This document shows positions 1,937 to 43,923 of a stretch of 64,000 nucleotides of DNA, one piece after another. The stretch lies in NCBI GenBank assembly GCA_016183305.1, contig JACPEW010000018.1, positions 2,280 to 66,279 of the forward strand, read 5' to 3'. Below the pieces are notes generated by a model, which saw only the letters and a list, made by a program, of their open reading frames with translations, searched no databases and was not told the DNA's origin. The translations under genes were made by a program, and so were the position numbers. The DNA comes from Candidatus Daviesbacteria bacterium. Its GTDB lineage: Bacteria; Patescibacteriota; Microgenomatia; Daviesbacterales; UBA10151. How positions within the stretch are numbered: the stretch's first letter is position 1; each line of letters starts with the position of its first letter.

Positions 1937-3337
1937 ATGGGATTAAATCTATTAAAAACCAATACTCTTCCTGAGGCTTTGCCAGTTAAAAAACTGATTG
2001 GTCCAAGTTTTTTGATTTTAGCCTTAGGACTGGGCAGCGGTGAGGTAATTTTGTGGCCATATTTGTCTGCTAATTTTGGTTTGGGGATTATATGGGGAGC
2101 ATTATTAGGTCTGACTTTTCAATTTTTTATGAACATGGAAATTGAAAGGTATGCTTTAGCTCATGGAGAGAGTATTTTTGTGGGGCTGGCTAGGAAGTTT
2201 AGATTGATTTCTTTTTGGTTTTTGTTTTCTACTTTTATTCCCTGGATGTGGCCAGGTATTATTGCCTCCTCTGCTAAATTTTTAGGCACTGTGATAGGGG
2301 TTGCTGGTACTCATTACTTGGCTATAGGTTTGCTTTTTTTGATTGGAACAATTTTGTCTTTAGGGCCGGTTTTGTATAAAACAGTAGAGTTTTTGCAAAA
2401 AAGAATTATTCTTTTGGGAGTACCATCAGTATTTTTACTCAGTTTAATTTTAGCTAGGCCTGAGCACTGGCTGGATTTAGCCCAAGGGGCAGTTGGTATA
2501 GGCAAAGGTTATTTTTTGCTGCCAGAGGGTTTAGCAATAGCCTCATTTTTAGCAGCTTTAGCTTATGCAGGAGCAGGTGGTAATTTAAACCTTGCCCAAT
2601 CTTATTATGTGAAAGAAAAGGGTTATGGAATGGGAAAATATGCAGGCAGAATTACCGGCTTACTGACTGGGAAAAAAGAGCAGGTGTCTTTGACCGGGAC
2701 TAAATTTGAAGCAAATGAGGAAAATCTAAATAAATTTAATAAATGGTGGAGAAATATTAATATTGAGCATTTTGTGGTTTTTTGGTTAACAGGGTCTATA
2801 ACTATTTTGCTTTTGGCGCTGCTGTCCTATTCCACAGTGTTTGGTTTGGGTGGTAATGCCCAGGGAGTAAATTTTGTAATAAAAGAAGCAAGTGTCATCG
2901 GGCAAAATATAGCACCTTTTGCGGGTACTTTCTTTTTGATTGTAGTTGGTATAACTTTATTTGGTACCCAACTAGGAGTGTTTGATGCTACCAGCAGGAT
3001 ATTATCAGAAAATTTAATTTTAAGCTCTTTTGGAAAGCTTAGCGAACTGAATCTTAGATGTTTATATTACTTGGTTTTGTGGCTGCAAATTTTAGCTGGA
3101 ATTACTATTTTGCTGTTAGGTTTTACTGAGCCTTTACAGCTCGTGATAACAGCTGCTGTTTTAAATGCTATAGCTATGTTTGTTCATGTTGGACTGACTT
3201 TATGGTTGAATTTAAGTTTACTAGATAAACAAATCAGGCCTTCCTTATTTAGGGTAAGCGCTATGGTTTTAGCATTTCTTTTTTATGGAGGCTTTAGCAC
3301 TTATACAGTTTATGATAGATTTATTAGAAACTTCTAA
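1937..3337 (+). CDS. Polytopic membrane transporter, Nramp-like
   Basis: 466 aa and highly hydrophobic. The N-terminal GPSFLILALGLGSGEVILWPYL...MNMEIERYAL resembles Nramp-related carriers. The family assignment is tentative. Confidence 0.45.
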   Translation: MGLNLLKTNTLPEALPVKKLIGPSFLILALGLGSGEVILWPYLSANFGLGIIWGALLGLTFQFFMNMEIERYALAHGESIFVGLARKFRLISFWFLFSTFIPWMWPGIIASSAKFLGTVIGVAGTHYLAIGLLFLIGTILSLGPVLYKTVEFLQKRIILLGVPSVFLLSLILARPEHWLDLAQGAVGIGKGYFLLPEGLAIASFLAALAYAGAGGNLNLAQSYYVKEKGYGMGKYAGRITGLLTGKKEQVSLTGTKFEANEENLNKFNKWWRNINIEHFVVFWLTGSITILLLALLSYSTVFGLGGNAQGVNFVIKEASVIGQNIAPFAGTFFLIVVGITLFGTQLGVFDATSRILSENLILSSFGKLSELNLRCLYYLVLWLQILAGITILLLGFTEPLQLVITAAVLNAIAMFVHVGLTLWLNLSLLDKQIRPSLFRVSAMVLAFLFYGGFSTYTVYDRFIRNF

Positions 3338-4899: not shown

Positions 4900-6284
4900 C
4901 TTTTTGTCTTCTCCATTAAATATAATATTCTTTGGCTGTTTTTGATAGGACAAATTTTTTTGATCTGGAAAAATTCTTTAAAAGCTTCCTCAAAACCTGC
5001 TTTAGTATAGGCTGGGAAAATATCTTCCCTATTTTGCAATAAAATTTTAACTTGCGAATCCTCTTTTGGTATAAACTCAATTATTAAATATTTGCTTAGT
5101 TTAGAAAAGAGAGAGGCAATATAAGATAAAGGTATATTAGCAGAGATTGCTAAATGATGAACTAAAGCTAAGGCTAGGGTAACGTCAGCAGGTCCTCTTT
5201 GAAAAAGAGATAACCTTTCTTCATTTGCCCAACCTAAAGACGGAGTTGGATTTGTTAAATCAATAAATAAGGGCAAAATATTTGTTTCATGATCCTTTAT
5301 CAGTTGTTGATAGTTTTTTTCTAAAGCTCCTAAATCAAGATCAAAAGAAATAACTAAATCAGCAAATTGCTTAGCAATTCTAGAAAAATAACCGGTATTT
5401 GCCCCCAAGTCCCAAATAGTTTTTGATTTAATAGATTTTAAAAAGCCTTTAACAAGTTCTCCTTTTTGGGTTAACGAAGAAGATGTGTAGTTATTATTTT
5501 CTCCGCTATAATACTCAGACCATTGTGTGTCTTTTGTATTCCAAGACAAGCTTTTGATTACCCCTTCTAAATTATCCAGTAAACCCAAAAATGCTCTTTT
5601 ACTAAAGCTTTTTTGGATCCTTGCAGAGCTTAGTTTTTTTTGATGATATTTTTTCTGGCTGGCAGCATGAGCATGGATATGTAGCATGACCCCTGGTTTA
5701 AAATGAGAGCGGAAGGGCAGCAATTTTGAGGCTAAATCAAGAGGAATACCATTAATAAAAAAAGAACTTAGCCTATTAAGACGGAAGTCAGTTAAAGACA
5801 TTAAGGTAAGAGGTGCTAAAAAATGTTCCACAAATTGTTTATAAGCAATCCAAGGTTTGCCTTCTCCGTATTTTTCAAAAGAAAGAGTATCAATGAGAAT
5901 TGGTTTTCCTTTCAAAAATTGAATATTAAAAGCGCTGGCATCTTTTAAACTTAATCCATGCTCTAAAGCAATTTTCTGGATATTTAAGGTTAAGAAAGCA
6001 GCATCTTTTAGCATCCCAAAACACCATTCATAAGGATAAGAAATAAAAGGGATTTGTTTAGGCTTAATAATTTTGTAGGCTTCAGGCGCTGGGTTTTTTA
6101 AATCAATTTCCTGATGTTCTATCAGCAGGTTTGAGGAAACTAGTTTATCATATAGCCCGGAATTTATTAGTAACTGGTAGTTGTCCTGATAGCTTTTATT
6201 AATCTGGCGGTAGATTAATTCTTTAATAGAAAAAACAAAACCGCTTGGGTCTTTAAAAGATGCAGAAATCCTGTCATTTTTCAT
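4896..6284 (-). CDS. Class I SAM-dependent methyltransferase with N-terminal extension
   Basis: IWDLGANTGYFSRIA is a glycine-rich SAM motif, and the gene overlaps both flanking genes in operon fashion. Confidence 0.6.
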   Translation of the reverse strand: MKNDRISASFKDPSGFVFSIKELIYRQINKSYQDNYQLLINSGLYDKLVSSNLLIEHQEIDLKNPAPEAYKIIKPKQIPFISYPYEWCFGMLKDAAFLTLNIQKIALEHGLSLKDASAFNIQFLKGKPILIDTLSFEKYGEGKPWIAYKQFVEHFLAPLTLMSLTDFRLNRLSSFFINGIPLDLASKLLPFRSHFKPGVMLHIHAHAASQKKYHQKKLSSARIQKSFSKRAFLGLLDNLEGVIKSLSWNTKDTQWSEYYSGENNNYTSSSLTQKGELVKGFLKSIKSKTIWDLGANTGYFSRIAKQFADLVISFDLDLGALEKNYQQLIKDHETNILPLFIDLTNPTPSLGWANEERLSLFQRGPADVTLALALVHHLAISANIPLSYIASLFSKLSKYLIIEFIPKEDSQVKILLQNREDIFPAYTKAGFEEAFKEFFQIKKICPIKNSQRILYLMEKTKR

Positions 6285-15801: not shown

Positions 15802-16206
15802 ATGAAAGAACTACGTTCCCACCTTAAAGGTGGGAAGCTAAATAAAAAACTGACACTTGAGCAATATAATATTTGTTTTCTAAAGGGTACTGAGCCTCCT
15901 TTTTCTGGAAAATATACTAATAATCATGAGCCAGGGATGTATGCTTGTGTAGTTTGTGGTACTAAACTTTTTTCTTCTGATAGTAAGTTTGACTCAGAAA
16001 CTGGCTGGCCTTCTTTTGATAGACCTTTTGCTAACAAGAATATTTCTTATTCTGAAGATTATTCTATGGGCATGAGAAGGATTGAGGTTATGTGTAAAAA
16101 ATGTGGTTCCCACTTAGGCCATGTGTTTGATGATGGCCCAACTTCTACTGGCAAAAGATTCTGTATCAATTCCCTAGCCTTAGATTTCATTGCGAATCAA
16201 GACTAA
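15802..16206 (+). CDS. msrB: Peptide-methionine (R)-S-oxide reductase
   Basis: CVVCGTKLF...GWPSF...CKKCGSHLGHVFDDGP (Zn CxxC pairs and catalytic region). The start is set at MKELRSH. Confidence 0.9.
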   Translation: MKELRSHLKGGKLNKKLTLEQYNICFLKGTEPPFSGKYTNNHEPGMYACVVCGTKLFSSDSKFDSETGWPSFDRPFANKNISYSEDYSMGMRRIEVMCKKCGSHLGHVFDDGPTSTGKRFCINSLALDFIANQD

Positions 16207-17036
16207 CGAAGTGTCATTCCCAAAAAAGAAATTCCAGCTTGAAATAAAAGGTATAATCCAAAAACAATACTTAATAATCCTGAAGCTGTTACCAGGTAGT
16301 GGTTTATAATTTTACTTTCCCTTTTTAAGAGGATAATTGAGGCCCCTATTCCTAAAGTTAGAATCATCATGCCAGTAATGATACCAATATGGAAAACAAG
16401 CAGGTAAATTATTGATAAAACTGTATTTTGTATGGTGCTTAGAATTAACAAAGCTATGGCAGTGCTGCCTGCTAAACCATGGATGAGCCCAATTACCAGT
16501 GGTCTGATAGTTTGAAATAATCCTAAATGATGAAAATTGCCAGCTATGGATTTCATAGTTGTCATTCCGAGCGAGGCCAGAGGCCGAGTGTAGGAATCTT
16601 GATTAAGAGAGATTGTCACGCCCTTCGGGCTCGCAATGACAGAATGTAAGTGGAGATGGGAATGTTGGTGGCCTTGGTTATCTAAATGTGAATGCTTATG
16701 GATAGTTACTGGTGTAAGTTTGTCTTGTATTTTTGAAGATATGCCAGATAAATTTAAAACTCCTAAGATAATTAACATTAGACCTACAACAAGCTCCATA
16801 ATTTGTTCCAAGCCTGAAGGTACTACAAAAGAGAATATAATAATTGGGATTGCTACTAAAGTAACTGTGATAGAATGCCCTATTCCCCACAAGGCACCTA
16901 TTAAAGCAGTATTTAAAATCCCTTTCTTTTGTTTAGCAATAATAGTGGTGATTGCTACAATATGGTCAGGATCTGTGGCATGACGCATTCCTAAAAGAAA
17001 ACTTAAACTTAAAATACTAATTATTTGCGCATACAT
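16203..17036 (-). CDS. Nickel/cobalt transporter-like membrane protein (HX4DH motif) carrying a palindromic-element insert
   Basis: RHATDPDHIVAI signature, a His-rich loop (HKHSHLDNQGHQHSHLHLH) and IHGLAGS. The repeat at 16561..16640 is read through in frame. Confidence 0.65.
   Translation of the reverse strand: MYAQIISILSLSFLLGMRHATDPDHIVAITTIIAKQKKGILNTALIGALWGIGHSITVTLVAIPIIIFSFVVPSGLEQIMELVVGLMLIILGVLNLSGISSKIQDKLTPVTIHKHSHLDNQGHQHSHLHLHSVIASPKGVTISLNQDSYTRPLASLGMTTMKSIAGNFHHLGLFQTIRPLVIGLIHGLAGSTAIALLILSTIQNTVLSIIYLLVFHIGIITGMMILTLGIGASIILLKRESKIINHYLVTASGLLSIVFGLYLLFQAGISFLGMTLR
16561..16640. repeat. Palindromic element copy inside the transporter CDS
   Basis: GTCATTCCGAGCGAGGCC...GGAATCTTGATT...GGGCTCGCAATGAC. 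Confidence 0.75.
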
Positions 17037-19268: not shown

Positions 19269-20177
19269 ATGGATATTTTATCAATAGTTTTAATTGTGGC
19301 AGGTTTGGTTTTATTTGAGACTATCTCTTCAGTTGATAATGCAGTGATTAATGCTGAAGTTTTATCCACCATGAGCAAAAGGGCCAGAAGATGGTTTCTT
19401 TTGTGGGGGCTTTTACTGGCTGTTTTTTTACTCAGAGGTTTATTGCCATGGGGTATTCTTTGGGCTACTAATCCAGGGCTAGGTCCAATTGGAGCATTTG
19501 GAGCAGCTTTAAGTTCAGATCCTAAAGTGGTAGAGGCAATTGAGAAATCCTCCCCTATTTTACTGTCAGGAGGAGGAATATTTTTGATATTTCTTTTTTT
19601 CCACTGGTTATTTTTGGAACCAAAAAACTACGGATTAAAAAGTGAAAGGTTTTTCCATTCCCAAGGGGTGTGGTTTTATGCTGTGGTCTCAATTATTTTA
19701 GCTGTGATAGTCTGGTTTGCCCTGCAGGAAAACCCTTTCATGGCCTTTGGAGCAGTAGTAGGATCAACAGCCTTTTTTATAACTCATGGGTTTAAGGAAA
19801 ATGCGGCAGCAGAGGAAAAGAAACTTCTTTCTACCAGCAGAAGTGATTTTAGTAAGATTCTGTATTTGGAAGTGATAGATGCCACCTTTTCTATAGATGG
19901 AGTGATCGGAGCATTTGCTTTTACCCTCTCTGTACCGCTTATTTTATTAGGTAATGGTATTGGGGCTTTTGTTGTCAGGCAGTTAACTATTGGTAATATT
20001 GACAGGATTAAAAAATATATTTATTTAAAAAACGGGGCAATGTATTCTATCCTTTCCTTGGGAATAATCATGATTTTAGATAGTTTTGGTTTTCATATTC
20101 CATCCTGGTTTACTCCTGTTGTGACAGCAATAATTGTGGGCTATTTCTTACTCAAATCCAGAAAAGCTATTGCTTAG
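19269..20177 (+). CDS. DUF475/TerC-like integral membrane protein
   Basis: ETISSVDNAVINAEVL and a second FSIDGVIGAF repeat. Confidence 0.55.
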   Translation: MDILSIVLIVAGLVLFETISSVDNAVINAEVLSTMSKRARRWFLLWGLLLAVFLLRGLLPWGILWATNPGLGPIGAFGAALSSDPKVVEAIEKSSPILLSGGGIFLIFLFFHWLFLEPKNYGLKSERFFHSQGVWFYAVVSIILAVIVWFALQENPFMAFGAVVGSTAFFITHGFKENAAAEEKKLLSTSRSDFSKILYLEVIDATFSIDGVIGAFAFTLSVPLILLGNGIGAFVVRQLTIGNIDRIKKYIYLKNGAMYSILSLGIIMILDSFGFHIPSWFTPVVTAIIVGYFLLKSRKAIA

Positions 20178-21639
20178 TTAGCACCACCATAAAATTATCC
20201 AAATAAACTGCTTTCCAGGTATTATCTTGGGCAACAGAAGCTAAAAAGGACCTGCCCCAAGGGGTTTGGTCTGTAATAGAAAAAATTATAGTTTTAAAAT
20301 TATATTGTTTTTCTAGATTTTTAAATTGGGAATAATCTGCCTGGGTTGGTATATATACTTCAGAAAAGAATTTTGCAGGATAAGCCTCTGGTCTGCCATC
20401 CACAAAAACCTGGTATTTGGGATATCCCCGGTAAATAATATAACTGCCTATATCAAAATTATTATAGATAGGTCCTGGTAAATTATTACTTAAGGTAAAA
20501 TCTAAAGCTTTTTTACCACTTTCCACAAACCTTAAATTGGGAAATTGGTTTGTTTTAAAATTATTAAGAGTAGTTATGATAAGAAGTATAGCTGTGATTA
20601 CTGTGGCAGTTTTGGTTAACCAATTTGATTTTAAAGGACCAAAGTTTTGTAAAACAGCTGGTAAGGACAAAAACACCAGATATGGAAAGCTTCTGACATT
20701 TAATGAAGCTAAAGCAGCACCAAAAGCAGCCAGTAAAATATTCTTAATCAATCCTTTTTTGTCATCCTGGACGATTAGTAAAGGATCCCTAGATTTTTTA
20801 ATCTTGAGATTCCTCACTATATCCGGAATGACGACTAGTATTGATAACAAGATAATTCCTAAGCTTATCTTTACCCAAATAAAATTAGGATTCTGGAAGT
20901 CAATACTTTCTAGTAGAAAGATGGTTTGGTTTTCTACAATGGTATAGCCATAGTTTTTAGTCACATTAAGAGGATAAAGAAATCCAGCTAAGCCATTTGG
21001 GTTAACTAAACTTGTTAATACTGATAGTATAAGAATAATAACTGATATCTTTAGCTTCCCACTTCCGATGTGGGAATGTAGTTTTTGGTAGGTTAAGTCA
21101 ATTAGAAAAATGGCCTGTAAGATTAGACCTACAAAAAAGTATATATGAGTATTAACCCAGATTAATTGGATAAAGGGTAATAAAAACACCAGCTTTGTAG
21201 GCCCTCTTAAATATTTTTCCAAAATATAACAAGTGCTAACAGTAAACAAAAAGCTAAAAAATTCTGGCCTTAGTTCTATTCTTTCCCTTAAAGTATGGAA
21301 AAAAATAAAACCTATAGGTAAAAGCAGAATAGAGTTATTTTTTGGGACCATTTTTAATATTAACCAAACTGAAGTTAGATAAATAACTAACTTGAAGACT
21401 AATAGAAAGTTAAGATTAATCTGGCTTACTAAATAAGTCCAAACTTCAAATAACCAATGGGTATTAATAAAAGGAAAATTAGGGTTAGTATAGGAAAAAA
21501 GGTTGGTTGTAGGAACAGCCTTTGTCTGCCAAATTACCTCCCCAAGTTTTAAATGTCTCCCTAAATCCTGGTCAAAAGAATAATCTGGCTTAAATATAAA
21601 AGAAAAAACAAAGAAAGTTAGGAGAATTTTAACCCGCAT
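20167..21639 (-). CDS. Polytopic membrane protein with C-terminal soluble domain (possible GT-C-like), carrying a palindromic-element insert
   Basis: About 10 hydrophobic helices. The repeat at 20761..20832 encodes VIPDIVRNLKIKKSRDPLLIVQDD in frame. Confidence 0.4.
   Translation of the reverse strand: MRVKILLTFFVFSFIFKPDYSFDQDLGRHLKLGEVIWQTKAVPTTNLFSYTNPNFPFINTHWLFEVWTYLVSQINLNFLLVFKLVIYLTSVWLILKMVPKNNSILLLPIGFIFFHTLRERIELRPEFFSFLFTVSTCYILEKYLRGPTKLVFLLPFIQLIWVNTHIYFFVGLILQAIFLIDLTYQKLHSHIGSGKLKISVIILILSVLTSLVNPNGLAGFLYPLNVTKNYGYTIVENQTIFLLESIDFQNPNFIWVKISLGIILLSILVVIPDIVRNLKIKKSRDPLLIVQDDKKGLIKNILLAAFGAALASLNVRSFPYLVFLSLPAVLQNFGPLKSNWLTKTATVITAILLIITTLNNFKTNQFPNLRFVESGKKALDFTLSNNLPGPIYNNFDIGSYIIYRGYPKYQVFVDGRPEAYPAKFFSEVYIPTQADYSQFKNLEKQYNFKTIIFSITDQTPWGRSFLASVAQDNTWKAVYLDNFMVVLTKQ
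20761..20832. repeat. Palindromic element copy inside a membrane-protein CDS (72 nt)
   Basis: GTCATCCTGGACG...AATCTTGAGATTCCTCAC...TCCGGAATGAC. Confidence 0.75.
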
Positions 21640-21661
21640 TTAAAAATTGTACCATGAAAGC

Positions 21662-21693
21662 CTGCGTGATAGCTTGCGTGATTATTGCGTGAT
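21662..21693 (+). repeat. 32-bp triple-9-mer block upstream of fic-1
   Basis: CTGCGTGAT-AGC-TTGCGTGAT-TA-TTGCGTGAT. It overlaps the TATAAT at 21693..21698. Confidence 0.7.
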
Positions 21694-21706
21694 ATAATAT
21701 AGATAT

Positions 21707-22765
21707 ATGTTAGAACCTATCTATAATATTACTTCTACCATACTTTCCCGGATTGCAGAAATTGCTGAAATAAAAGCAGCTGTGGAAAGGTCCAGGGTAC
21801 TACCTTTAAATGAAGCACAGCTCAGAAGGCAGGCAATCCTCAGGATGGCTCATACTTCTACTTCTATTGAAGGCAACAAATTAGCCCAATTTGAAGTAGG
21901 AAAAGTTTTGGAAGGTAAAACAGTCAGGGCTTCCCAAAAAGATATTTTGGAGGTAGAAAACTATTATAGTGCTTTAAAACTGTTGGATGAGCTGTCTAAG
22001 AAAAAAGGTGATATTGCTGAGCAGGAAGTTTTAAGCTTGCATAAAGCAGTAGTCAGTGGTTTAGCGGACAAGGAAAAGGTTGGTAATTTTAGACCTGCAG
22101 ATGTGTATGTGCTTGATGATCTAGGTGATGGCAGAGAGATGCTAAGATTTAAGGCCCCCCCAGCCCCGGAGGTAAAGAAATTAATAGCAGACTTATTAGA
22201 GTGGTTAAAGGAATCAAAAAAGCAAGATTTACATCCTGTGATTAGGGCAGGCATCCTACATTTACAATTTGTGACTATCCACCCTTTTACTGATGGCAAT
22301 GGCAGGGTGGCCAGATTACTCACTCAGCTCCAGTTATACAGGGATAATTGGGATTTTAGAAAGATTTTAGTTTTAGAAGATTATTATAACCGGAACAGGA
22401 TGTCTTACTATAATGCTGAAAATAAATCTCAGGGTAGAAACTATCAGAAAGATATGGATTTTACCCCGTGGTTAGAATACTTTACCACTGGGTTTTTAGT
22501 AGAAGCTAGAAAAGCTTTGGAACAAATTCAATCAATTGGTTATGGAAAAGTCAGTAAAAAGAGTGAGCAAATATTTTTGGATAGGGATGAGATTCAGATT
22601 ATGGATTTTTTAACTACCACAGGCAGAATTACTTCTGAGGATGTGGTGGATATTTTAAAGCTAGCCAAAAGAAGTGCTCAGCTTAAGCTAAAAGGATTAT
22701 TGGATAAGAAATTAATTGAATCCCAAGGTAAAGGTCCCAGTACCTATTATATTATTGCACGATAA
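21707..22765 (+). CDS. fic: Fic family protein (class II type, N-terminal inhibitory motif, C-terminal wHTH-like region)
   Basis: HPFTDGNGRVARLL is the Fic motif, and TSTSIEGN matches the (S/T)xxxE(G/N) inhibitory helix. Confidence 0.9.
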   Translation: MLEPIYNITSTILSRIAEIAEIKAAVERSRVLPLNEAQLRRQAILRMAHTSTSIEGNKLAQFEVGKVLEGKTVRASQKDILEVENYYSALKLLDELSKKKGDIAEQEVLSLHKAVVSGLADKEKVGNFRPADVYVLDDLGDGREMLRFKAPPAPEVKKLIADLLEWLKESKKQDLHPVIRAGILHLQFVTIHPFTDGNGRVARLLTQLQLYRDNWDFRKILVLEDYYNRNRMSYYNAENKSQGRNYQKDMDFTPWLEYFTTGFLVEARKALEQIQSIGYGKVSKKSEQIFLDRDEIQIMDFLTTTGRITSEDVVDILKLAKRSAQLKLKGLLDKKLIESQGKGPSTYYIIAR

Positions 22766-22786
22766 ATTGCGGGATTATTGCGCGAT
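22755..22786 (+). repeat. 32-bp triple-9-mer block at the fic-1 3' end
   Basis: TTGCACGAT-AAA-TTGCGGGAT-TA-TTGCGCGAT. The spacing is the same as in the upstream block, and 25 of 32 positions are identical by my alignment. Confidence 0.7.
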
Positions 22787-22865
22787 TATTTAAACACACT
22801 TGCTTTTTACTAATCCGTATGGGACAATTTAGGGGTGAGTAGAGTGCATTTAGTGTTTTTACAGT

Positions 22866-22903
22866 AATTCACCTCCACAGAAAAAAAGAAAGAGAGGTGA
22901 ATT
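22866..22903 (+). promoter_or_regulatory. SD-sequestering hairpin in the 5' leader of the RRM protein gene
   Basis: A perfect 10-bp stem forms between AATTCACCTC (22866..22875) and GAGGTGAATT (22894..22903). The 3' arm contains the GAGGTGA ribosome-binding site, 4 nt from the TTG start. Confidence 0.55.
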
Positions 22904-22906
22904 TTT

Positions 22907-23167
22907 TTGAATAACAAGAAATTATTTGTTGGTTCTTTACCGTGGGCTGTTGATGATGCCAGACTTGCTGAGATTTTTGCTCAGGCTGGTAATGTTGTTT
23001 CAGCACAGGTTGTTAAAGACCGTGAAACAGGCAGATCCAGAGGATTTGGTTTCGTTGAGATGTCTACTGATGAAGAAGCTCAAAACGCAGTCAAGAACTT
23101 AAATGGCAGTGATATTGAAGGTCGCAAGATCGTTGTTAATATCGCTCGTCCAAGAGAGGACCGGTAA
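22907..23167 (+). CDS. RRM-type RNA-binding protein
   Basis: KLFVGSLPW (RNP2) and RGFGFVEM (RNP1). Confidence 0.9.
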   Translation: MNNKKLFVGSLPWAVDDARLAEIFAQAGNVVSAQVVKDRETGRSRGFGFVEMSTDEEAQNAVKNLNGSDIEGRKIVVNIARPREDR

Positions 23168-23195
23168 TTGTTTCATTAAATTTGAAACAAGGAAA

Positions 23196-23225
23196 AGAGG
23201 CTGGAGAAATCTGGCCTCTTTTTTA
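23196..23225 (+). terminator. Rho-independent terminator after the RRM gene
   Basis: AGAGGC...GCCTCT stem followed by a T-run. Confidence 0.7.
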
Positions 23226-23891
23226 ATGGGTAGCTAGATCCAGTTTAGGAAGAAGTTTTTTGGCAGCCAGGTAATTTAAAGTAAATTTAACCAGTAAATA
23301 AGAGGCAGCTATACCTGAGGCAAATAACAACCTTTCCGCAATTACAACTGGGATTAATCCCTTCCAGACTGCAGCTGGAAGATTAAAAGCCCAGATCCAG
23401 ACTGCTCCACCTACTGCATGAGCTGTAAAGGTTGAGCCTAAGCTTTTGATAAATAAGTTATCTCTTTTAAAGTAAGCAAGGATAGGGATTATCCAAAACA
23501 TTAAGGCATAATAAGGAACCTGTCTGCCTATTGGGTGTGCTATAAAAGCTAAGATGCAAAGGAGAGGAACTGTCAGGAGCCATTTGCCTTGGTATTTTTT
23601 GTTAGTGATGATGGCAAAATAGGCTACAGCAAATAGAGTTGGAAATAACCTTATAACAGCTCCTGTGGTAAGCGGTGTTTGTTTTATGAACAAATTAATC
23701 ACTTCTACTGCAAAGACTGAAGCTATACCCAAGACCGGTCCCAAAAAGCCTCCTGCCATTGGACCAAAGAAATCAAAAAGAGTAAAGGAAACATTTGAAC
23801 CCATGATCTTATTAAAAGGAATTTGTAAGCTGATAAAGCCTACTATAGAAAAAAGCGCTAAAAAGAATAGTTTTTTCCTGGTGTTTAACAT
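23223..23891 (-). CDS. Polytopic membrane protein, unknown function
   Basis: Six or more TM helices. The start is set at MLNTRKK because the longer ORF runs into tRNA-Leu. Confidence 0.45.
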   Translation of the reverse strand: MLNTRKKLFFLALFSIVGFISLQIPFNKIMGSNVSFTLFDFFGPMAGGFLGPVLGIASVFAVEVINLFIKQTPLTTGAVIRLFPTLFAVAYFAIITNKKYQGKWLLTVPLLCILAFIAHPIGRQVPYYALMFWIIPILAYFKRDNLFIKSLGSTFTAHAVGGAVWIWAFNLPAAVWKGLIPVVIAERLLFASGIAASYLLVKFTLNYLAAKKLLPKLDLATH

Positions 23892-24213: not shown

Positions 24214-24486
24214 TTATTCCTTACTGGGGGAGTATTTTATCCAGGTTTTTTTGATAAAGGGTAAAGTTAGGGTAGATAATAAAAAAGCTATACTGGGTAT
24301 AATAGCATTTAGCCAAGGCCTATCAATATTTATTGAATTCATATAAAAACCAACTGCCAAATAAGTAAAGAGGGCAATTACAAATTTTCTAGTCCAGCTT
24401 GTTTCCCAGGCTTTATCTTTTTCTACTTTTTTGTTTCTTCCCTCAATTGTAGATATTCTTTGTCCTAACTCTTCTAAGCTACTCAT
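24214..24486 (-). CDS. Small membrane protein
   Basis: 90 aa with two hydrophobic helices. Its start overlaps the pyrD stop by 4 nt. Confidence 0.45.
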   Translation of the reverse strand: MSSLEELGQRISTIEGRNKKVEKDKAWETSWTRKFVIALFTYLAVGFYMNSINIDRPWLNAIIPSIAFLLSTLTLPFIKKTWIKYSPSKE

Positions 24487-25607
24487 ACTTCATATCTTAG
24501 CATACCTACTGCCTGGGAGATATTGGTATAACCATCTTTTTTAAGGAGCTTAACTAAGCCTTGGTTGATTTCAGAAATTAGTTGTGGGCCCTGGAAGATC
24601 ATGCCTGTAATTAGTTCTACTAAAGAAGCCCCTAATTTAATCTTTCTATAAGCATCTTCTGCTGAAAATATCCCCCCCACTCCAATAATAATATATTTAC
24701 CCTTGGTTTTTTGGTAGATCCTTTGGATTTGATGGTTAGATAATTGCTCAACCAGCTTACCGCTCAGTCCCCCATCTTTTGGCACTACCCTATCAGAAAT
24801 TTTGTTTGTCCTGGGTTTAGTTAGATTTGAGCAGGTAAAACCATCTATCTTGTGTTTTTTAACAACTTCTAAAATTTTATCAAGCTGGTTATCAGTTAAA
24901 TCAGGAGGCATTTTAATAAAAATAGGTTTTTTAGTAGGAATTTTAGTAATTTGTTTTAATAGTACATCTAGTTTTTGTGGATCAGAAAAAGGCAAGCCTC
25001 CATAAGCATTTGGGCAGCTGATATTTATCTCAAAAATATCCCCAATACCAGTAAAATATTGATAGGCTTTAACATAATCTTTTATACCAGCATCTATCTC
25101 AACAGTACCAAGGCTATTGGTTTTACCAATGCTGGTAATAACAGGAAAAGCAAAATCTTTTCCTTGTAGCCTTTTAGAAATTCTTTCAGCTCCATCATTT
25201 TTTAAGCCATAATTTACTATCAAACTTCTAGAGTTTTTTAATCTCCAGAGCCTGGGCCTGAGATTACCCTTACAAGCCTCACCAGTTATAGTCCCTATTT
25301 CAGCAAAGCCAAAACCAACTGAAGGTAAAATATTAGTCAGTCTGGCATCTTTATCAAATCCAGCAGATAAACCAACAGGATTTTTAAATTTTATCCCTAA
25401 GATTTTCTGTTCCAAAGCAGGATGGGAATAAGAAAATAATAAGCTGGTTAGCTTTCTGGTTAAGCTATTACCCCCCAAAAACCTACCTGCCAAAGTCATA
25501 CCACCATGAATATTCTCAGGTTCAACTAAAAAGAATAAAGGCTTTAATAGGTTTTTATAACAAAAGCTTAATATTCTATTCCTTAGAAAAACAATAACTT
25601 CAATCAT
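24483..25607 (-). CDS. pyrD: Dihydroorotate dehydrogenase (quinone-type, class 2)
   Basis: NPVGLSAGFDKDA, FEINISCPNA, GGLSG and IGVGGI motifs. Confidence 0.85.
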   Translation of the reverse strand: MIEVIVFLRNRILSFCYKNLLKPLFFLVEPENIHGGMTLAGRFLGGNSLTRKLTSLLFSYSHPALEQKILGIKFKNPVGLSAGFDKDARLTNILPSVGFGFAEIGTITGEACKGNLRPRLWRLKNSRSLIVNYGLKNDGAERISKRLQGKDFAFPVITSIGKTNSLGTVEIDAGIKDYVKAYQYFTGIGDIFEINISCPNAYGGLPFSDPQKLDVLLKQITKIPTKKPIFIKMPPDLTDNQLDKILEVVKKHKIDGFTCSNLTKPRTNKISDRVVPKDGGLSGKLVEQLSNHQIQRIYQKTKGKYIIIGVGGIFSAEDAYRKIKLGASLVELITGMIFQGPQLISEINQGLVKLLKKDGYTNISQAVGMLRYEV

Positions 25608-32941: not shown

Positions 32942-33952
32942 ATGTTTAAACCAAAATATACTCTAATTCCCGAAATCCTCAATAATATTAATGAAATAGA
33001 AAGGCTTTATGGACGACTTGAGGGTTTAACTATTCCCCAGCATCTTTTATTAAATCTTGAACGGGATAATTTAATCCAATCTGTATATGTTTCAAATAGC
33101 ATTGAAGGGAATCCACTCTCTCAAGCAGAAGTTACCAACCTATTATTAAATGGTAGGGTACCGGTTAATCGGGATGAAAAAGAGGTTGTTAATTACTTTA
33201 AAATTTTAAAAACTCTTCATAAAAGAATTGGACAACCTTTTGATCTTAATATTATTCTTGATATTCATAAGGAGTTGATGGAAGCGGTTAATGATAAAAT
33301 CAAAGGTAAAATTCGAAATAAACAAATAGTGATAGGTAATTATGGTGAAGATAATAAAATTATTATTAAACATAATCCTCCGTTTCATACATATTTAGAA
33401 ATAGAGCAGTCTCTTAAGAAACTTTTGAATTGGATTCAAGATAGCGCTGAACCATCTATTTTAAAAGCAGGATTGTTTCATCATCAATTTGTCTTTATTC
33501 ATCCGTTTGAGGATGGTAATGGAAGAGTGTGCAGGTTATCAATGGCACTATTTTTATTAAAAAATAAATATCTTATTAATAAGTACTTTGTTCTTGATGA
33601 TTACTATGATATTGATAGACAACAGTATTCAGATAAATTACATACTGCTGATTTTGGTGATAAGACAGAATGGCTGGAGTATTTTACAAATGGAGTGAAA
33701 TATTCATTACAAAGCGCGCTTGGAAAAATTGAATCAGGACTTACCAAACTTACGTTTGATATTCGTCCAACTCCTAAAGAACAGGAAGCGTTAGAGATAA
33801 TACAAAAGTATAAAGAAATTAATTCCGCTGATTTAGTAAAAGAGCTGAATATAACAAGACAACAGGCATTCAATCTTTTAAGAGCGCTTGTAAAAAAAGG
33901 TTATCTTGAAAAAAAAGGCAGCACGAAAAGTAGTTTTTATATTTTGAAATAA
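32942..33952 (+). CDS. fic: Fic family protein (class II type)
   Basis: HPFEDGNGRVCRLS Fic motif, the VSNSIEGN inhibitory motif and a C-terminal wHTH-like tail. Confidence 0.9.
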   Translation: MFKPKYTLIPEILNNINEIERLYGRLEGLTIPQHLLLNLERDNLIQSVYVSNSIEGNPLSQAEVTNLLLNGRVPVNRDEKEVVNYFKILKTLHKRIGQPFDLNIILDIHKELMEAVNDKIKGKIRNKQIVIGNYGEDNKIIIKHNPPFHTYLEIEQSLKKLLNWIQDSAEPSILKAGLFHHQFVFIHPFEDGNGRVCRLSMALFLLKNKYLINKYFVLDDYYDIDRQQYSDKLHTADFGDKTEWLEYFTNGVKYSLQSALGKIESGLTKLTFDIRPTPKEQEALEIIQKYKEINSADLVKELNITRQQAFNLLRALVKKGYLEKKGSTKSSFYILK

Positions 33953-40108: not shown

Positions 40109-40351
40109 TCACATCTCTTCTACAGCTTCCAAAGACCACTTCATTCTATTGACATCAAACTTTAATCTATAAAAGTTATCTCCAGAACTGATAGAAAAGT
40201 GATAAAATAGCCAAGCGCCATTTTTAGAAGTGTGAATCAGGTTGATTTTGTCTACTTTAATTTGTCTACCGCGCCAGTAAAATGAATAAGGCTGAATTAT
40301 GTTGTTTTTGAAAAAGACCCAAACATTAATAGTTTCTTGTATTTCTAGCAT
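40109..40351 (-). CDS. Hypothetical small protein upstream of dinB
   Basis: 80 aa with no recognised motif. It is co-oriented with dinB. Confidence 0.4.
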   Translation of the reverse strand: MLEIQETINVWVFFKNNIIQPYSFYWRGRQIKVDKINLIHTSKNGAWLFYHFSISSGDNFYRLKFDVNRMKWSLEAVEEM

Positions 40352-40388
40352 AATTTTAATATATACCGAATAAAACCCAAATATCAAT

Positions 40389-40510
40389 ATGGAAGTTAAA
40401 ATTCAAAATTCAAAATTCAAAAATTCAATTCAAAAGTTAAAATTTTTAAAAACTTTTAAATTTTTCCTTGTACTTTTGACTTTTAACTTTTTACTTTTGA
40501 CTTTACCTAC
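40389..40510. repeat. AAATTCAAAA / TTTTGACTTTT imperfect palindromic repeat
   Basis: The left arm has aaaattcaaaattcaaaattcaaaaattcaattcaaaagttaaaa, and the right arm has cttgtacttttgacttttaactttttacttttgac. Confidence 0.65.
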
Positions 40511-42176
40511 TCCTGCCTATGCTATTACCGATCCTCTCTCTGTTGTCAATAATAAATTTGGTATTCATCTTATCCAAGCTGCTGTTGAAGAATCCTCTCC
40601 TGCAGCAGATTTAGTTAATAGTTCTGGTGGTGATTGGGGTTATATTACTGTTTTAGTTGAAAGCAAGGATAGGAATCATGGTAAATGGCAGGAATTTTTT
40701 AATGATTTAAGAAAGAGACATATTATCCCTATAGTTAGGCTTGCTACCCAACCAGATGGTAATTTTTGGAAAAGGCCATATGAAGGAGAAGAACAAGCCT
40801 GGGCTGATTTTTTAGATGCTTTAAATTGGCCAACAAAAAACCGTTATGTAACTATTTATAATGAGCCAAACCATGCTACAGAATGGGGAAATTTAGTTGA
40901 CGCTAAATCTTATGCAGAAATATTAGATAAGACTATCACAGCGCTAAAAAATAAAAATAGAGATTTTTTTGTACTCAATGGAGGATTTGATGCTTCTGCT
41001 CCTTCAAAACCACCCTTTCATGAAGACCAATTAGTTTTTATGAAGCAAATGAATGAAGCAGTTTCTGGCATTTTTGAGAAATTAGATGGTTGGGTCTCCC
41101 ACTCTTATCCTAATCCTGAATTTGCAGGTTCACCAGATGCTGTAGGAAGAGGGACTATAAGGACCTGGTTTTGGGAAATACAACAGCTTAAAAATTTAGG
41201 AGTTAGCAAAAATTTACCAATATTTATTACAGAAACAGGCTGGAAGCATGCTGAAGGGTTAAATTATAATTCCTATTTTCCTGATACGGATACTGTCAGT
41301 AAATATTACCAGCAAGCATTTAATTCAGCCTGGAATAACAACAGGATTGTGGCTATAACTCCTTTTTTATTAAACTATCAAGAAGCTCCTTTTGATCATT
41401 TTTCTTTCAAAAAATCAAATAAGGATAAACAAAGCAAAGATTCTTCTGATTATTATTCTATCTATCCGGCAATCCAAAATTTATCTAAAACAAAAGGTAA
41501 GCCTGTTCAGCAAACAGAGGCAGAGTTAGTAAAAGGTGAAATCTACAGCTCAATTGTTTCAGGAGAAGTTTATAATATTGCCCTAACTTTTAAAAATACT
41601 GGGCAATCAATTTGGAATGATAGAGACCCTGTGAGACTAATGCCACTAACAGGAGGGAAGGAGTTAGGGATTGAAGCAGTAGAGTTACCTAAAGATAAAA
41701 AAATTGAGCCCGGGCAGCAGTATTCTTTTGAGTTAAATATGAAGGCTCCTGAAAGTGGAGTTTATACAATTACCTTGAATTTAAAGGAAGGAGATAAGCA
41801 ATTTAGCTCCTCCCCTATTCAGTTTACTACAGAAGTTAAATCTCCAGTAGTTCTGAAGGTAATGGGAGTTTTGGGATGGAAAAAAGATTTTTCCGGGGAT
41901 TATATTCTAAAAATTAAAGGAGCTACAGGAGAAAGTGCCCAAAATATAATTTTAAATAAAAAGGGAATTTCTAAAGAAATAGAAGCAAGGTATTTGCTGC
42001 CTGATTATTCCTTTAAATTTTCCTTGGAAAAACCATACTATGTCACTCAAACAATTAATCAACAAGTTTATGCTGGAGTTAATACCCTAAACTTTGGTAC
42101 CCTGCAGCCTGATTTATTACCAGCAATTTTAAATCCAGCACAATTTTGGCAGCTGCTCCCTTTTTCCAATAAATGA
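40389..42176 (+). CDS. Secreted clan-A (GH5-like) glycoside hydrolase with C-terminal Ig/NBR1-like domains
   Basis: IYNEPNH is a candidate acid/base NEP motif and IFITETGW a candidate nucleophile. The signal peptide ends in AYA. The N-terminus is built from a repeat element. Confidence 0.55.
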   Translation: MEVKIQNSKFKNSIQKLKFLKTFKFFLVLLTFNFLLLTLPTPAYAITDPLSVVNNKFGIHLIQAAVEESSPAADLVNSSGGDWGYITVLVESKDRNHGKWQEFFNDLRKRHIIPIVRLATQPDGNFWKRPYEGEEQAWADFLDALNWPTKNRYVTIYNEPNHATEWGNLVDAKSYAEILDKTITALKNKNRDFFVLNGGFDASAPSKPPFHEDQLVFMKQMNEAVSGIFEKLDGWVSHSYPNPEFAGSPDAVGRGTIRTWFWEIQQLKNLGVSKNLPIFITETGWKHAEGLNYNSYFPDTDTVSKYYQQAFNSAWNNNRIVAITPFLLNYQEAPFDHFSFKKSNKDKQSKDSSDYYSIYPAIQNLSKTKGKPVQQTEAELVKGEIYSSIVSGEVYNIALTFKNTGQSIWNDRDPVRLMPLTGGKELGIEAVELPKDKKIEPGQQYSFELNMKAPESGVYTITLNLKEGDKQFSSSPIQFTTEVKSPVVLKVMGVLGWKKDFSGDYILKIKGATGESAQNIILNKKGISKEIEARYLLPDYSFKFSLEKPYYVTQTINQQVYAGVNTLNFGTLQPDLLPAILNPAQFWQLLPFSNK

Positions 42177-43305: not shown

Positions 43306-43923
43306 TCAGCTCTTTTGTTTTTGTTGATTTATTTCTGTAATTAACTTTTTAGCTTGTTTATAATCCGCTTCCTTCAGCATATCGTTACATTTCTCAAATC
43401 TTTCCTTATTAAAAGCCAATACATAAATTACCTTGTGATTCTCCTGGTCGAACTCTAAATTAATAGTGGCCAAAGTATCAAATACACAAGCTGGAAAATC
43501 TTTTCTGTTGCCGGTAAGCATAGCTCCTTTATTTTTTGCTGCCATTAGCATCCCGGCTAATACTAAATCTACAAAACTACTGGCTCCACAATATTTTTCT
43601 TGCACATATATTTTCGATAACAGCAGGGCATTAGTGATAAAATTGGGCAAATGCTCCAGATATAGCTTTTGAGATATTACTGCAAACAAAGGACTTTCTA
43701 TGAATTTTTGTTTGTTAAGTTTAATCTCTAAAACGGGAGTATTTCTCAAAAACTCAAATTCTACAAAAGGGTGAATATAAAGATTTTTTAAACCAAAATT
43801 CCCGGTTAGTTCCTTTAGAAGGATTGCGTGATCGTATATGTGTGCAAGACAATCATTATCAATAAAAATGAATCGTCCTGAGATAGCCCCCTGGAAATTT
43901 TGACTATAGAAAGTTTTTAGCAT
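43306..43923 (-). CDS. PIN-like domain protein (putative toxin)
   Basis: FIFIDNDCL near the N-terminus and MLTGNRKDFP near the C-terminal third resemble the PIN acidic-residue layout. The call is tentative. Confidence 0.45.
   Translation of the reverse strand: MLKTFYSQNFQGAISGRFIFIDNDCLAHIYDHAILLKELTGNFGLKNLYIHPFVEFEFLRNTPVLEIKLNKQKFIESPLFAVISQKLYLEHLPNFITNALLLSKIYVQEKYCGASSFVDLVLAGMLMAAKNKGAMLTGNRKDFPACVFDTLATINLEFDQENHKVIYVLAFNKERFEKCNDMLKEADYKQAKKLITEINQQKQKS

Follow-up and report, generated by a model that had tools for sequence, protein, structure and literature searches.

The fic locus and its two repeat arrays

We analysed a stretch of 64,000 nucleotides from a Candidatus Daviesbacteria bacterium (assembly GCA_016183305.1, contig JACPEW010000018.1, positions 2,280 to 66,279), hereafter referred to as the window. 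It carries a gene for a Fic family protein (fic) that is preceded by an array of three 9-bp direct repeats and followed by a second array of the same build, close to the promoter of an RNA-binding protein gene (rbp). The features of this locus are listed below with their position in the window and their strand.

21646..21654, minus strand: extended -10 element of a divergent membrane-protein gene, TGGTACAAT, read from the sequence (a -10-like box is listed at -12)
21662..21693, plus strand: upstream array of three 9-mers (21662-21670, 21674-21682 and 21685-21693), read from the sequence; proposed operator between two divergent promoters
21690..21698, plus strand: extended -10 element of fic, TGATATAAT, read from the sequence; its TGAT is the end of the third 9-mer
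21707..22765, plus strand: fic coding sequence, 352 aa (Pfam Fic, invariant columns, AlphaFold2 model, Foldseek)
22755..22786, plus strand: downstream array of three 9-mers (22755-22763, 22767-22775 and 22778-22786), read from the sequence
22800..22828, plus strand: putative rbp promoter, TTGCTT (22800-22805), a 17-nt spacer and GACAAT (22823-22828), read from the sequence and conserved in relatives
22866..22903, plus strand: hairpin in the 5' untranslated region (UTR) of rbp, AATTCACCTC ... GAGGTGAATT, with arms at 22866-22875 and 22894-22903 (fold)
22907..23167, plus strand: rbp, coding for an RNA-binding protein of the RRM type (86 aa; start codon TTG; Pfam RRM_1, 80 bits)

The upstream array reads CTGCGTGAT-AGC-TTGCGTGAT-TA-TTGCGTGAT and the downstream array TTGCACGAT-AAA-TTGCGGGAT-TA-TTGCGCGAT, the first unit of the latter overlapping the final codons of fic (ATT ATT GCA CGA TAA). 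The initial annotation had described them as two 32-bp blocks, and the sequence confirms its description: both blocks have spacers of 3 nt and then 2 nt between their units, and they agree at 25 of the 32 positions. The pair is the longest direct repeat found by a repeat search between 20000 and 24500 (31 nt, 81% identity), and no third array was found in the 64-kb window. A 20-mer core with up to three mismatches occurs twice in the window and never in 100 shuffles, which excludes chance as the source of the arrays. Single units behave differently, as TTGCGYGAT with at most one mismatch gave 16 matches for 9.7 +/- 3.0 expected; of these, six belong to the arrays and 10 lie scattered elsewhere in the window. 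The signal is the clustering of the 9-mers and not the frequency of the word. Outside the arrays, single 9-mers are as frequent in the window as the background predicts. Two isolated exact 9-mers, at 43824 (plus strand) and 45963 (minus strand), were set aside as single copies within open reading frames (ORFs) that are consistent with this background.

The fic product is 100% identical to the entry 'Fic family protein [Candidatus Daviesbacteria bacterium]', and more than 100 clusters are 78-94% identical to it. Only the Fic and Fic_N families of Pfam were detected, Fic with 71 bits against a cut-off of 24. The catalytic motif HxFx(D/E)GNGRxxR is present as H192-PFTDGNGRVA-R203, and H192, P193, F194, D196, G197, N198, G199, R200 and R203 are invariant in two protein alignments (A1 and A2) that cover 38-86% identity. 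The inhibitory motif of class II proteins is found at S51-T52-S-I54-E55-G56-N57, of which S51, T52, I54, E55, G56 and N57 are likewise invariant. In an AlphaFold2 model (pLDDT 88), a flexible, low-confidence linker (residues 279-287) joins the Fic domain to a predicted domain of the winged helix-turn-helix (wHTH) type at residues ~288-352 (nt ~22568-22762), with helices at 293-305, 310-317 and 321-333 and strands at 337-340 and 347-350. Its recognition helix starts with K321-R-S-A-Q325; the corresponding K/R-R-(T/S)-A-Q is nearly invariant, far above the average of the protein, even though overall identity drops to ~40%. Foldseek returned full-length matches to 4rgl, CbFic2 (8cil), Mycobacterium marinum Fic (7cb8), CccR (7xux) and SoFic (3zec, 3eqx), while the isolated wHTH domain gave a weak match to the wHTH regulator 2d1h (E 0.035). 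By sequence and model, window Fic therefore belongs to the class II Fic AMP-transferases and has a predicted winged helix at its C-terminus. Against the NCBIfam equivalog of SoFic (NF046030), which has a cut-off of 550, its score is 61.5 bits, indicating that the architecture of SoFic is kept in a different subfamily. This subfamily is very large and mostly belongs to bacteria of the Candidate Phyla Radiation (CPR), with thousands of proteins at E <= 1e-20, one of which is encoded by Candidatus Microsyncoccus archaeolyticus PMX.50 (L071).

The upstream array and the fic promoter across the subfamily

One genome per species was scanned with TTGCGYGATNNTTGCGYGAT, which yielded at least 119 loci. 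At least about 40 of those listed encode a homologue of window Fic, the start of which mostly lies 11-65 nt after the array; these homologues are 39-49% identical to window Fic, and 72-86% in Daviesbacteria. Most of the other loci listed are two-unit matches in unrelated, often GC-rich genomes. Because this first sample was chosen by the motif, further samples were chosen by the protein alone, namely five Daviesbacteria loci (the window, L001, L002, L005 and L127) and six distinct Parcubacteria-type loci (P0139, P0141, P0148, P0203, P0221 and P0216). All 11 have an upstream array: it is present in five of five Daviesbacteria loci, and in six of six distant relatives with three to five units. 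Negative controls consisted of 77 metagenome and 80 viral loci that encode other Fic proteins, at most 42% identical. The metagenome loci had been retrieved with a Fic protein profile and, as the matches listed were mostly unrelated Fic proteins, served as a control rather than as a sample of the subfamily; the viral set comprised the best 80 Fic loci from viral contigs. The array is absent from 155 of these 157 loci, the exceptions being L171 and L139.

The geometry of the array was examined in 44 distinct subfamily loci, in 40 of which a -10 box was called. An upstream array was found in 41, with exactly three units in 35, and successive units start 11 nt (65 cases) or 12 nt (18 cases) apart. 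Their consensus, tnTTGCGYGATTw, is essentially invariant at T4, C6, G7, G9, A10 and T11. Judging from these comparisons, the upstream (TTGCGYGAT)x3 array is a hallmark of this Fic subfamily. The positive loci carry CPR labels (Paceibacterota, Moraniibacteriota, Saccharibacteria, Woesebacteria, Amesbacteria, Uhrbacteria, Falkowbacteria, Portnoybacteria and Candidatus Microsyncoccus archaeolyticus) as well as others (Elusimicrobia, Melioribacteraceae, Ignavibacteriaceae, Margulisiibacteriota and Pacearchaeota), some of which may be binning errors. For instance, L002/L062 (CAZCNP010000005.1) and several other 'binchicken' contigs are titled 'uncultured Gammaproteobacteria' while their genes are Daviesbacteria- or CPR-like; in L002/L062, Fic and the RRM protein are each 86% identical to those of the window, and the taxonomic labels of these metagenome-assembled genomes look wrong.

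The neighbourhoods of fic differ across the subfamily, with defence and toxin-antitoxin islands in Parcubacteria-type genomes and the membrane-protein gene and rbp in Daviesbacteria. Among the subfamily loci examined, no upstream neighbour is conserved and no other gene is constantly linked to the array; hence no other candidate regulator travels with it. Two loci have unusual layouts. L309 (1767-4098; JAHJED010000061.1, labelled Nanoarchaeota) carries tandem Fic genes of 357 aa and 380 aa, with an array before the first only. In L057 (4379-6011 in fic orientation), an opposite-strand ORF of ~300 aa, possibly a hydrolase, lies between a pair of three-unit arrays that are 1.6 kb apart, directly upstream of fic, giving the order array-insert-array-fic.

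In the window, the TATAAT of the fic promoter (21693-21698) is preceded by TG and ends 8 nt before the ATG at 21707, and no Shine-Dalgarno sequence was found upstream of this start. The overlap between the third 9-mer and the extended -10 element recurs in L047, L097 and L009, and in other relatives TGGTATAAT or TATAAT precedes the ATG by 5-8 nt. Overall, in 22 of the 40 loci with a called -10 box, 5-8 nt separate the end of this box from the ATG. Furthermore, M1, P4 and Y6 are invariant across the alignment, so that the start codon is secure. With a -10 box about 5-9 nt from the start and no Shine-Dalgarno sequence, fic fits the expected layout of a leaderless gene. The leaderless mRNA proposed by the initial annotation is thus well supported at the sequence level, since the short distance between the -10 box and the ATG is conserved and the start codon is fixed. 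This is not specific to fic. Among the 63 ORFs of the window, only about 10 have a Shine-Dalgarno-like sequence. A -10-like box lies 6-9 nt ahead of the start in about a dozen, examples being the TATAAT-like boxes of 32942-33952, 16203-17036 (minus strand) and 24483-25607 (minus strand). Leaderless transcription therefore seems common in this Daviesbacteria genome. A known RNA element was also considered and rejected, as Rfam gave nothing relevant for 21400-23400 and the upstream array, being located upstream of the promoter, is not part of the fic mRNA. Elsewhere in the window, TGAATTTT is repeated about four times at 40388-40427, just upstream of ORF 40109-40387 (minus strand) and overlapping the start of ORF 40389-42176 (plus strand).

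On the other side of the array, the divergent gene (20167-21639, minus strand) encodes a 490-aa membrane protein, and its extended -10 element ends 6 nt before its ATG. The array starts 7 nt beyond this -10 box, on its upstream side. The same divergent layout is found in the window, L001, L002 and L048, and the array lies between two divergent, probably leaderless promoters. In L048 (JACOXH010000005.1, ~1570-1640 in fic orientation; 84% identity), the region between the membrane-protein gene and fic is 67 nt long, as in the window, and the three-unit array is inverted. The whole array thus appears to have been inverted between the two promoters, which would fit an orientation-independent, occluding repressor site serving both promoters better than a directional promoter element.

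In some relatives, the fic region is interrupted by small insertions that are bounded by inverted repeats and are reminiscent of miniature inverted-repeat transposable elements. L001 has ~130 bp inserted between the fic promoter and the ATG (2955-3090), and consequently the gene caller extended the fic ORF to 382 aa. In L079, a palindromic insert lies between the array and the -10 box (~4926-4960 in fic orientation), and in L048 ~95 bp separate the fic stop codon from the downstream array (~2695-2790 in fic orientation).

The position of the array relative to the core promoter varies. In 22 of the 41 arrays, among them those of most distant relatives, exactly 17 nt separate the proximal TTGCGY from the -10 box, and this hexamer there coincides with the -35 element. 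The arrays of the window, L047 and L097 reach into the -10 box with their proximal unit (spacer of 0-2 nt), and in other Daviesbacteria loci the spacer is 7-15 nt. In either case, whether at the -35 element or shifted onto the extended -10 element, a protein bound to the array would cover core promoter elements. The 17-nt spacing, together with a TTG that fits the -35 consensus, could also mean that the repeats are promoter architecture, that is, a -35 hexamer (TTGCGY) with phased -35-like or UP-like elements upstream of it, which RNA polymerase would contact without a dedicated regulator. The arrays of rbp, L113 and L171 agree with this view in lying just upstream of a separate -35 element. 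However, neither the variable spacing in Daviesbacteria nor the inverted array of L048 is expected of such elements. Arrays also persist with no promoter behind them (L033, L052 and L025), other promoters of the window use TTGACA-like -35 boxes without the motif, and the invariant positions run through GAT, past a hexamer. We therefore consider a pure promoter element quite unlikely.

The downstream array and rbp

A downstream array was found in the Daviesbacteria relatives L001, L002, L005, L033, L048, L079 and L127, and direct repeats also flank fic in L025. Conversely, it is absent from the six protein-selected distant relatives, all of which have the upstream array, and L080, another Daviesbacteria relative, has none right after fic. 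On the loci compared, the downstream array is largely confined to Daviesbacteria. Bracketing by two arrays, as put forward in the initial annotation, is therefore not a property of the fic gene itself.

What the downstream array adjoins in Daviesbacteria is rbp. The two genes, fic and rbp, stay linked in every Daviesbacteria locus examined, separated by at most two others. Upstream of rbp, TTGCTW-17-GAYAAT is conserved in eight relatives; the consensus promoter scan did not list 22800..22828, and this promoter is accordingly given as putative. The downstream array of the window ends 13 nt upstream of its -35 element. Wherever rbp directly follows fic (the window, L001, L048, L079, L005 and L127), the array lies 0-20 nt upstream of the rbp promoter. 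In L080, where another gene stands between fic and rbp, a degenerate copy of the array stays at rbp. In L002 and L033, where inserted genes separate the two, the array stayed at the 3' end of fic and rbp lost it. These observations suggest that the downstream array, which looks like a lineage-specific second operator, most often serves the rbp promoter. Regulation of fic from both ends is thus poorly supported: the array in question usually sits just upstream of the rbp -35 element and resembles an operator of the neighbouring promoter.

The 5' UTR of rbp (22830-22906, ~70 nt) is kept almost base for base across Daviesbacteria relatives. Its hairpin pairs with the Shine-Dalgarno sequence GAGGTG, with a z-score of -1.4 that is not significant alone, and Rfam gave no match for it. 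The hairpin could be a temperature- or protein-responsive translational switch.

The initial annotation had offered as an alternative that fic is a cassette bounded by recombination sites, in which case the arrays would be recombination or insertion scars, either att-like sites or what remains of the promoter of a tandem fic copy that was lost. Several loci invite this reading. Direct repeats flank fic in Daviesbacteria and L025, a foreign-looking gene lies between the two arrays of L057, the array of L002 and L033 remained at the 3' end of fic after rearrangement, Parcubacteria-type fic genes lie among toxin-antitoxin and restriction genes, and L019 has an array and 17 nt of the L010 fic promoter but no fic. 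Yet the repeats do not accompany fic everywhere, as the distant relatives without a downstream array show. No recombinase was found among six neighbouring proteins of the window scanned with Pfam, which include DUF475/TerC, NMO-like and RRM proteins and two membrane proteins without a Pfam match, and no recombinase family is present among the called genes of the relatives' loci. Furthermore, the upstream arrays of the window and L001 differ at one of 32 positions, whereas the two arrays of the window differ at seven, suggesting that the latter have evolved separately for a long time. Fic is also 72-94% identical across Daviesbacteria, compared with 55-79% and 65-100% for the flanking membrane-protein genes, and conservation at least as high as that of its neighbours indicates vertical inheritance, with which the maintained synteny of fic and rbp agrees. 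Taken together with a downstream array that is mostly limited to Daviesbacteria and usually lies upstream of the rbp -35 element, these results make a mobile cassette very improbable.

A phage origin was rejected as well, since none of the best 80 Fic loci from viral contigs has the array or exceeds 37% identity to window Fic, and 16 matches to the array pattern in viral contigs are without Fic. Likewise, plasmid-type iterons or a replication origin do not fit short units at a promoter, and no Rep-like gene was found nearby.

Candidate autorepression and comparison with known systems

The most economical explanation, and one that we regard as probable, is that the arrays are operator sites for Fic's own C-terminal wHTH domain, with autorepression. 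Self-recognition is economical because the array follows fic through unrelated neighbourhoods, the recognition helix is conserved, and three related proteins bind DNA: CccR, a class II Fic-HTH protein, uses its HTH domain to repress its own promoter (PMC9755527), SoFic binds the 100 bp that precede the start codon of its own gene (bioRxiv 10.64898/2026.07.09.737422), and DNA binding switches the activity of CbFic2 between AMPylation and deAMPylation (PMC10628234). The operator role suggested by the initial annotation holds up in this respect for the upstream array, which is conserved before homologues of 39-49% identity and overlaps the -35/-10 region, and falls short for control from both ends.

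We propose that, as the units repeat every 11-12 bp, three wHTH domains would line up head-to-tail along a single face of the DNA. The upstream array of the window spans the -35 region together with the TG in the extended -10 element of fic and adjoins the divergent -10 box, so that its occupancy should block RNA polymerase. Negative autoregulation of this kind would keep a potentially toxic AMP-transferase low and self-limiting. In Daviesbacteria, a second copy of the array would have arisen next to the rbp promoter, where it may place rbp under the control of the same Fic or act as an auxiliary operator; a loop anchor is possible but not required. That Fic is the protein bound to the arrays, the stoichiometry of binding, repression as its outcome and any effect on rbp are what we infer from the sequence.

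Several points weigh against this proposal. The operator role is deduced, for every member of the subfamily, from conservation and position, and because the proximal unit doubles as a -35-like hexamer in many loci, part of that conservation could reflect promoter function alone. The downstream arrays of L033, L052 and L025 are followed by no promoter on the plus strand and by nothing close on that strand. Direct repeats would not suit a two-fold dimer of the CccR type, which binds inverted repeats, and another mode of assembly would be needed. In addition, a second Fic-wHTH subfamily (L113 and L171; 26-28% identity), with a different recognition helix, also has a TTGCGYGAT array, 14-16 nt upstream of a TTGACA -35 element (L171, 2368-2470; L113, 1378-1470), which suggests action in trans or a different binding protein. 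Finally, solitary three-unit arrays without the fic subfamily in the retrieved block were found in CPR-labelled or unclassified loci (L019, L032, L050, L070 and L121), where they adjoin NUDIX-like genes (L019), an AbiEi-like wHTH gene pair (L121) and other genes. In L019, the 17 nt that follow the array are shared with the fic promoter of L010 and no fic follows, suggesting a captured or orphaned fic promoter.

The second subfamily also has a tandem repeat of its own around the -10 box, with two copies of ATTGTATATA in L171 and two of AATCTTATAT in L113, which may be that subfamily's own operator. L033 and L127 combine a KRAAQ recognition helix with TTTCGYGAT units; this covariation of helix and motif was discounted as a single evolutionary event and is a hint only. 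Recognition of Z-DNA by a Z-alpha-like domain was rejected too. The cores TGCGYG, TACGCG and TGCACG alternate pyrimidines and purines, but transitions preserve such alternation automatically, the match of the isolated domain to PKZ Z-alpha is not significant (E ~0.4), and the Tyr of the PKZ helix aligns with Lys.

The solitary arrays, those before the second subfamily and those upstream of rbp are also what one would expect if another transcription factor, encoded elsewhere in CPR genomes, bound the arrays, with fic, rbp and a few others as its regulon. A global regulator should have many other targets, however, and most of the CPR- or Patescibacteria-labelled array matches listed directly precede this fic subfamily. 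The array accompanies fic into very different neighbourhoods and differently labelled phyla, no regulator gene is syntenic with it, and the window holds no third copy. On balance, we find a separate regulator unlikely.

A further proposal extends autorepression by Fic and is at present tentative, with a small chance of being correct. By analogy with the effect of nonspecific DNA on CbFic2, the triple repeat might serve as a DNA cofactor that assembles Fic head-to-tail and switches it between AMPylation and deAMPylation, while in Daviesbacteria Fic would also be a vertically inherited local transcription factor that ties the membrane-protein, fic and rbp promoters into one small regulon. If so, a toxin-like enzyme would act as a local regulator in a genome with very few regulators.

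Autoregulating Fic-HTH proteins are already known. What appears to be undescribed so far is this motif and the tandem direct-repeat architecture of a Fic operator; the near-invariance of the motif in a very large subfamily, mostly of CPR bacteria, and its duplication beside a neighbouring promoter in Daviesbacteria are apparently new as well. A full-text literature search for TTGCGCGAT returned only unrelated papers among the matches listed, and a search on Fic in Patescibacteria gave nothing on these arrays among the matches listed. To our knowledge, Fic-wHTH enzymes are widespread and an operator has been defined for CccR only, the site of SoFic being unmapped. Our analysis predicts for one Fic-wHTH subfamily a precise, nearly invariant operator, tnTTGCGYGATTw x3 with a period of 11-12 bp. 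As far as we know, transcriptional control in CPR bacteria is almost unexplored, and these arrays represent one of few concrete cis-regulatory predictions for this group. In Daviesbacteria, they suggest that a Fic enzyme may control the neighbouring gene of an RNA-binding protein.

Winged-helix domains of the OmpR/PhoB type read tandem direct repeats with a period of ~11 bp, and PhoB activates transcription. The arrays resemble the pho box in consisting of tandem direct repeats about one helical turn apart, with the proximal repeat at the -35 element in many fic loci. Unlike PhoB, window Fic has no receiver domain, its wHTH domain was not assigned to the OmpR family by the searches run, and no response regulator is adjacent to fic in the window. 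PhoB is thus a working analogy in mode of action and not in family membership. Repression would be likelier than PhoB-like activation because fic promoters have good, often extended -10 boxes that the array overlaps.

The lac O2 and gal OI sites are auxiliary operators, and the second array of the window, ~1.1 kb downstream at the end of the regulated gene, is reminiscent of them. In contrast to these sites, the distance between the starts of the two arrays is not constant among relatives (1093-1224 bp), most of the family lacks the second site, and this site usually lies beside another promoter; looping is therefore not required.

SoFic of Shewanella oneidensis (PDB 3EQX, 3ZEC) shares with window Fic the class II Fic and wHTH domains and full-length structural similarity. 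It binds its upstream region as a dimer, with no operator motif defined (bioRxiv 10.64898/2026.07.09.737422), and targets EF-Tu; window Fic is not its orthologue. CbFic2 of Coxiella burnetii (PDB 8CIL), the second-best structural match, has the same domains and binds random DNA with high affinity through its HTH domain (PMC10628234), whereas conservation of the array implies a specific site for window Fic.

CccR of Yersinia pseudotuberculosis (PDB 7XUX; PMC9755527) also has an N-terminal inhibitory helix, a Fic domain and an HTH domain at the C-terminus, and matches window Fic over its full length (Foldseek E 8e-13) at a sequence identity of ~20%. CccR is a type VI secretion effector, while nothing suggests secretion of window Fic. 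It binds repeats at its own -35/-10 boxes, and the array likewise lies at the core promoter. The CccR operator consists of two inverted 10-bp repeats (AGATAATCAT) 26 bp apart that are bound by a back-to-back dimer (PMC9755527), whereas the candidate operator of the window comprises three direct 9-bp repeats of unrelated sequence with a period of 11-12 bp. Such a direct-repeat layout would imply a mode of DNA recognition unlike that of CccR on its inverted repeats.

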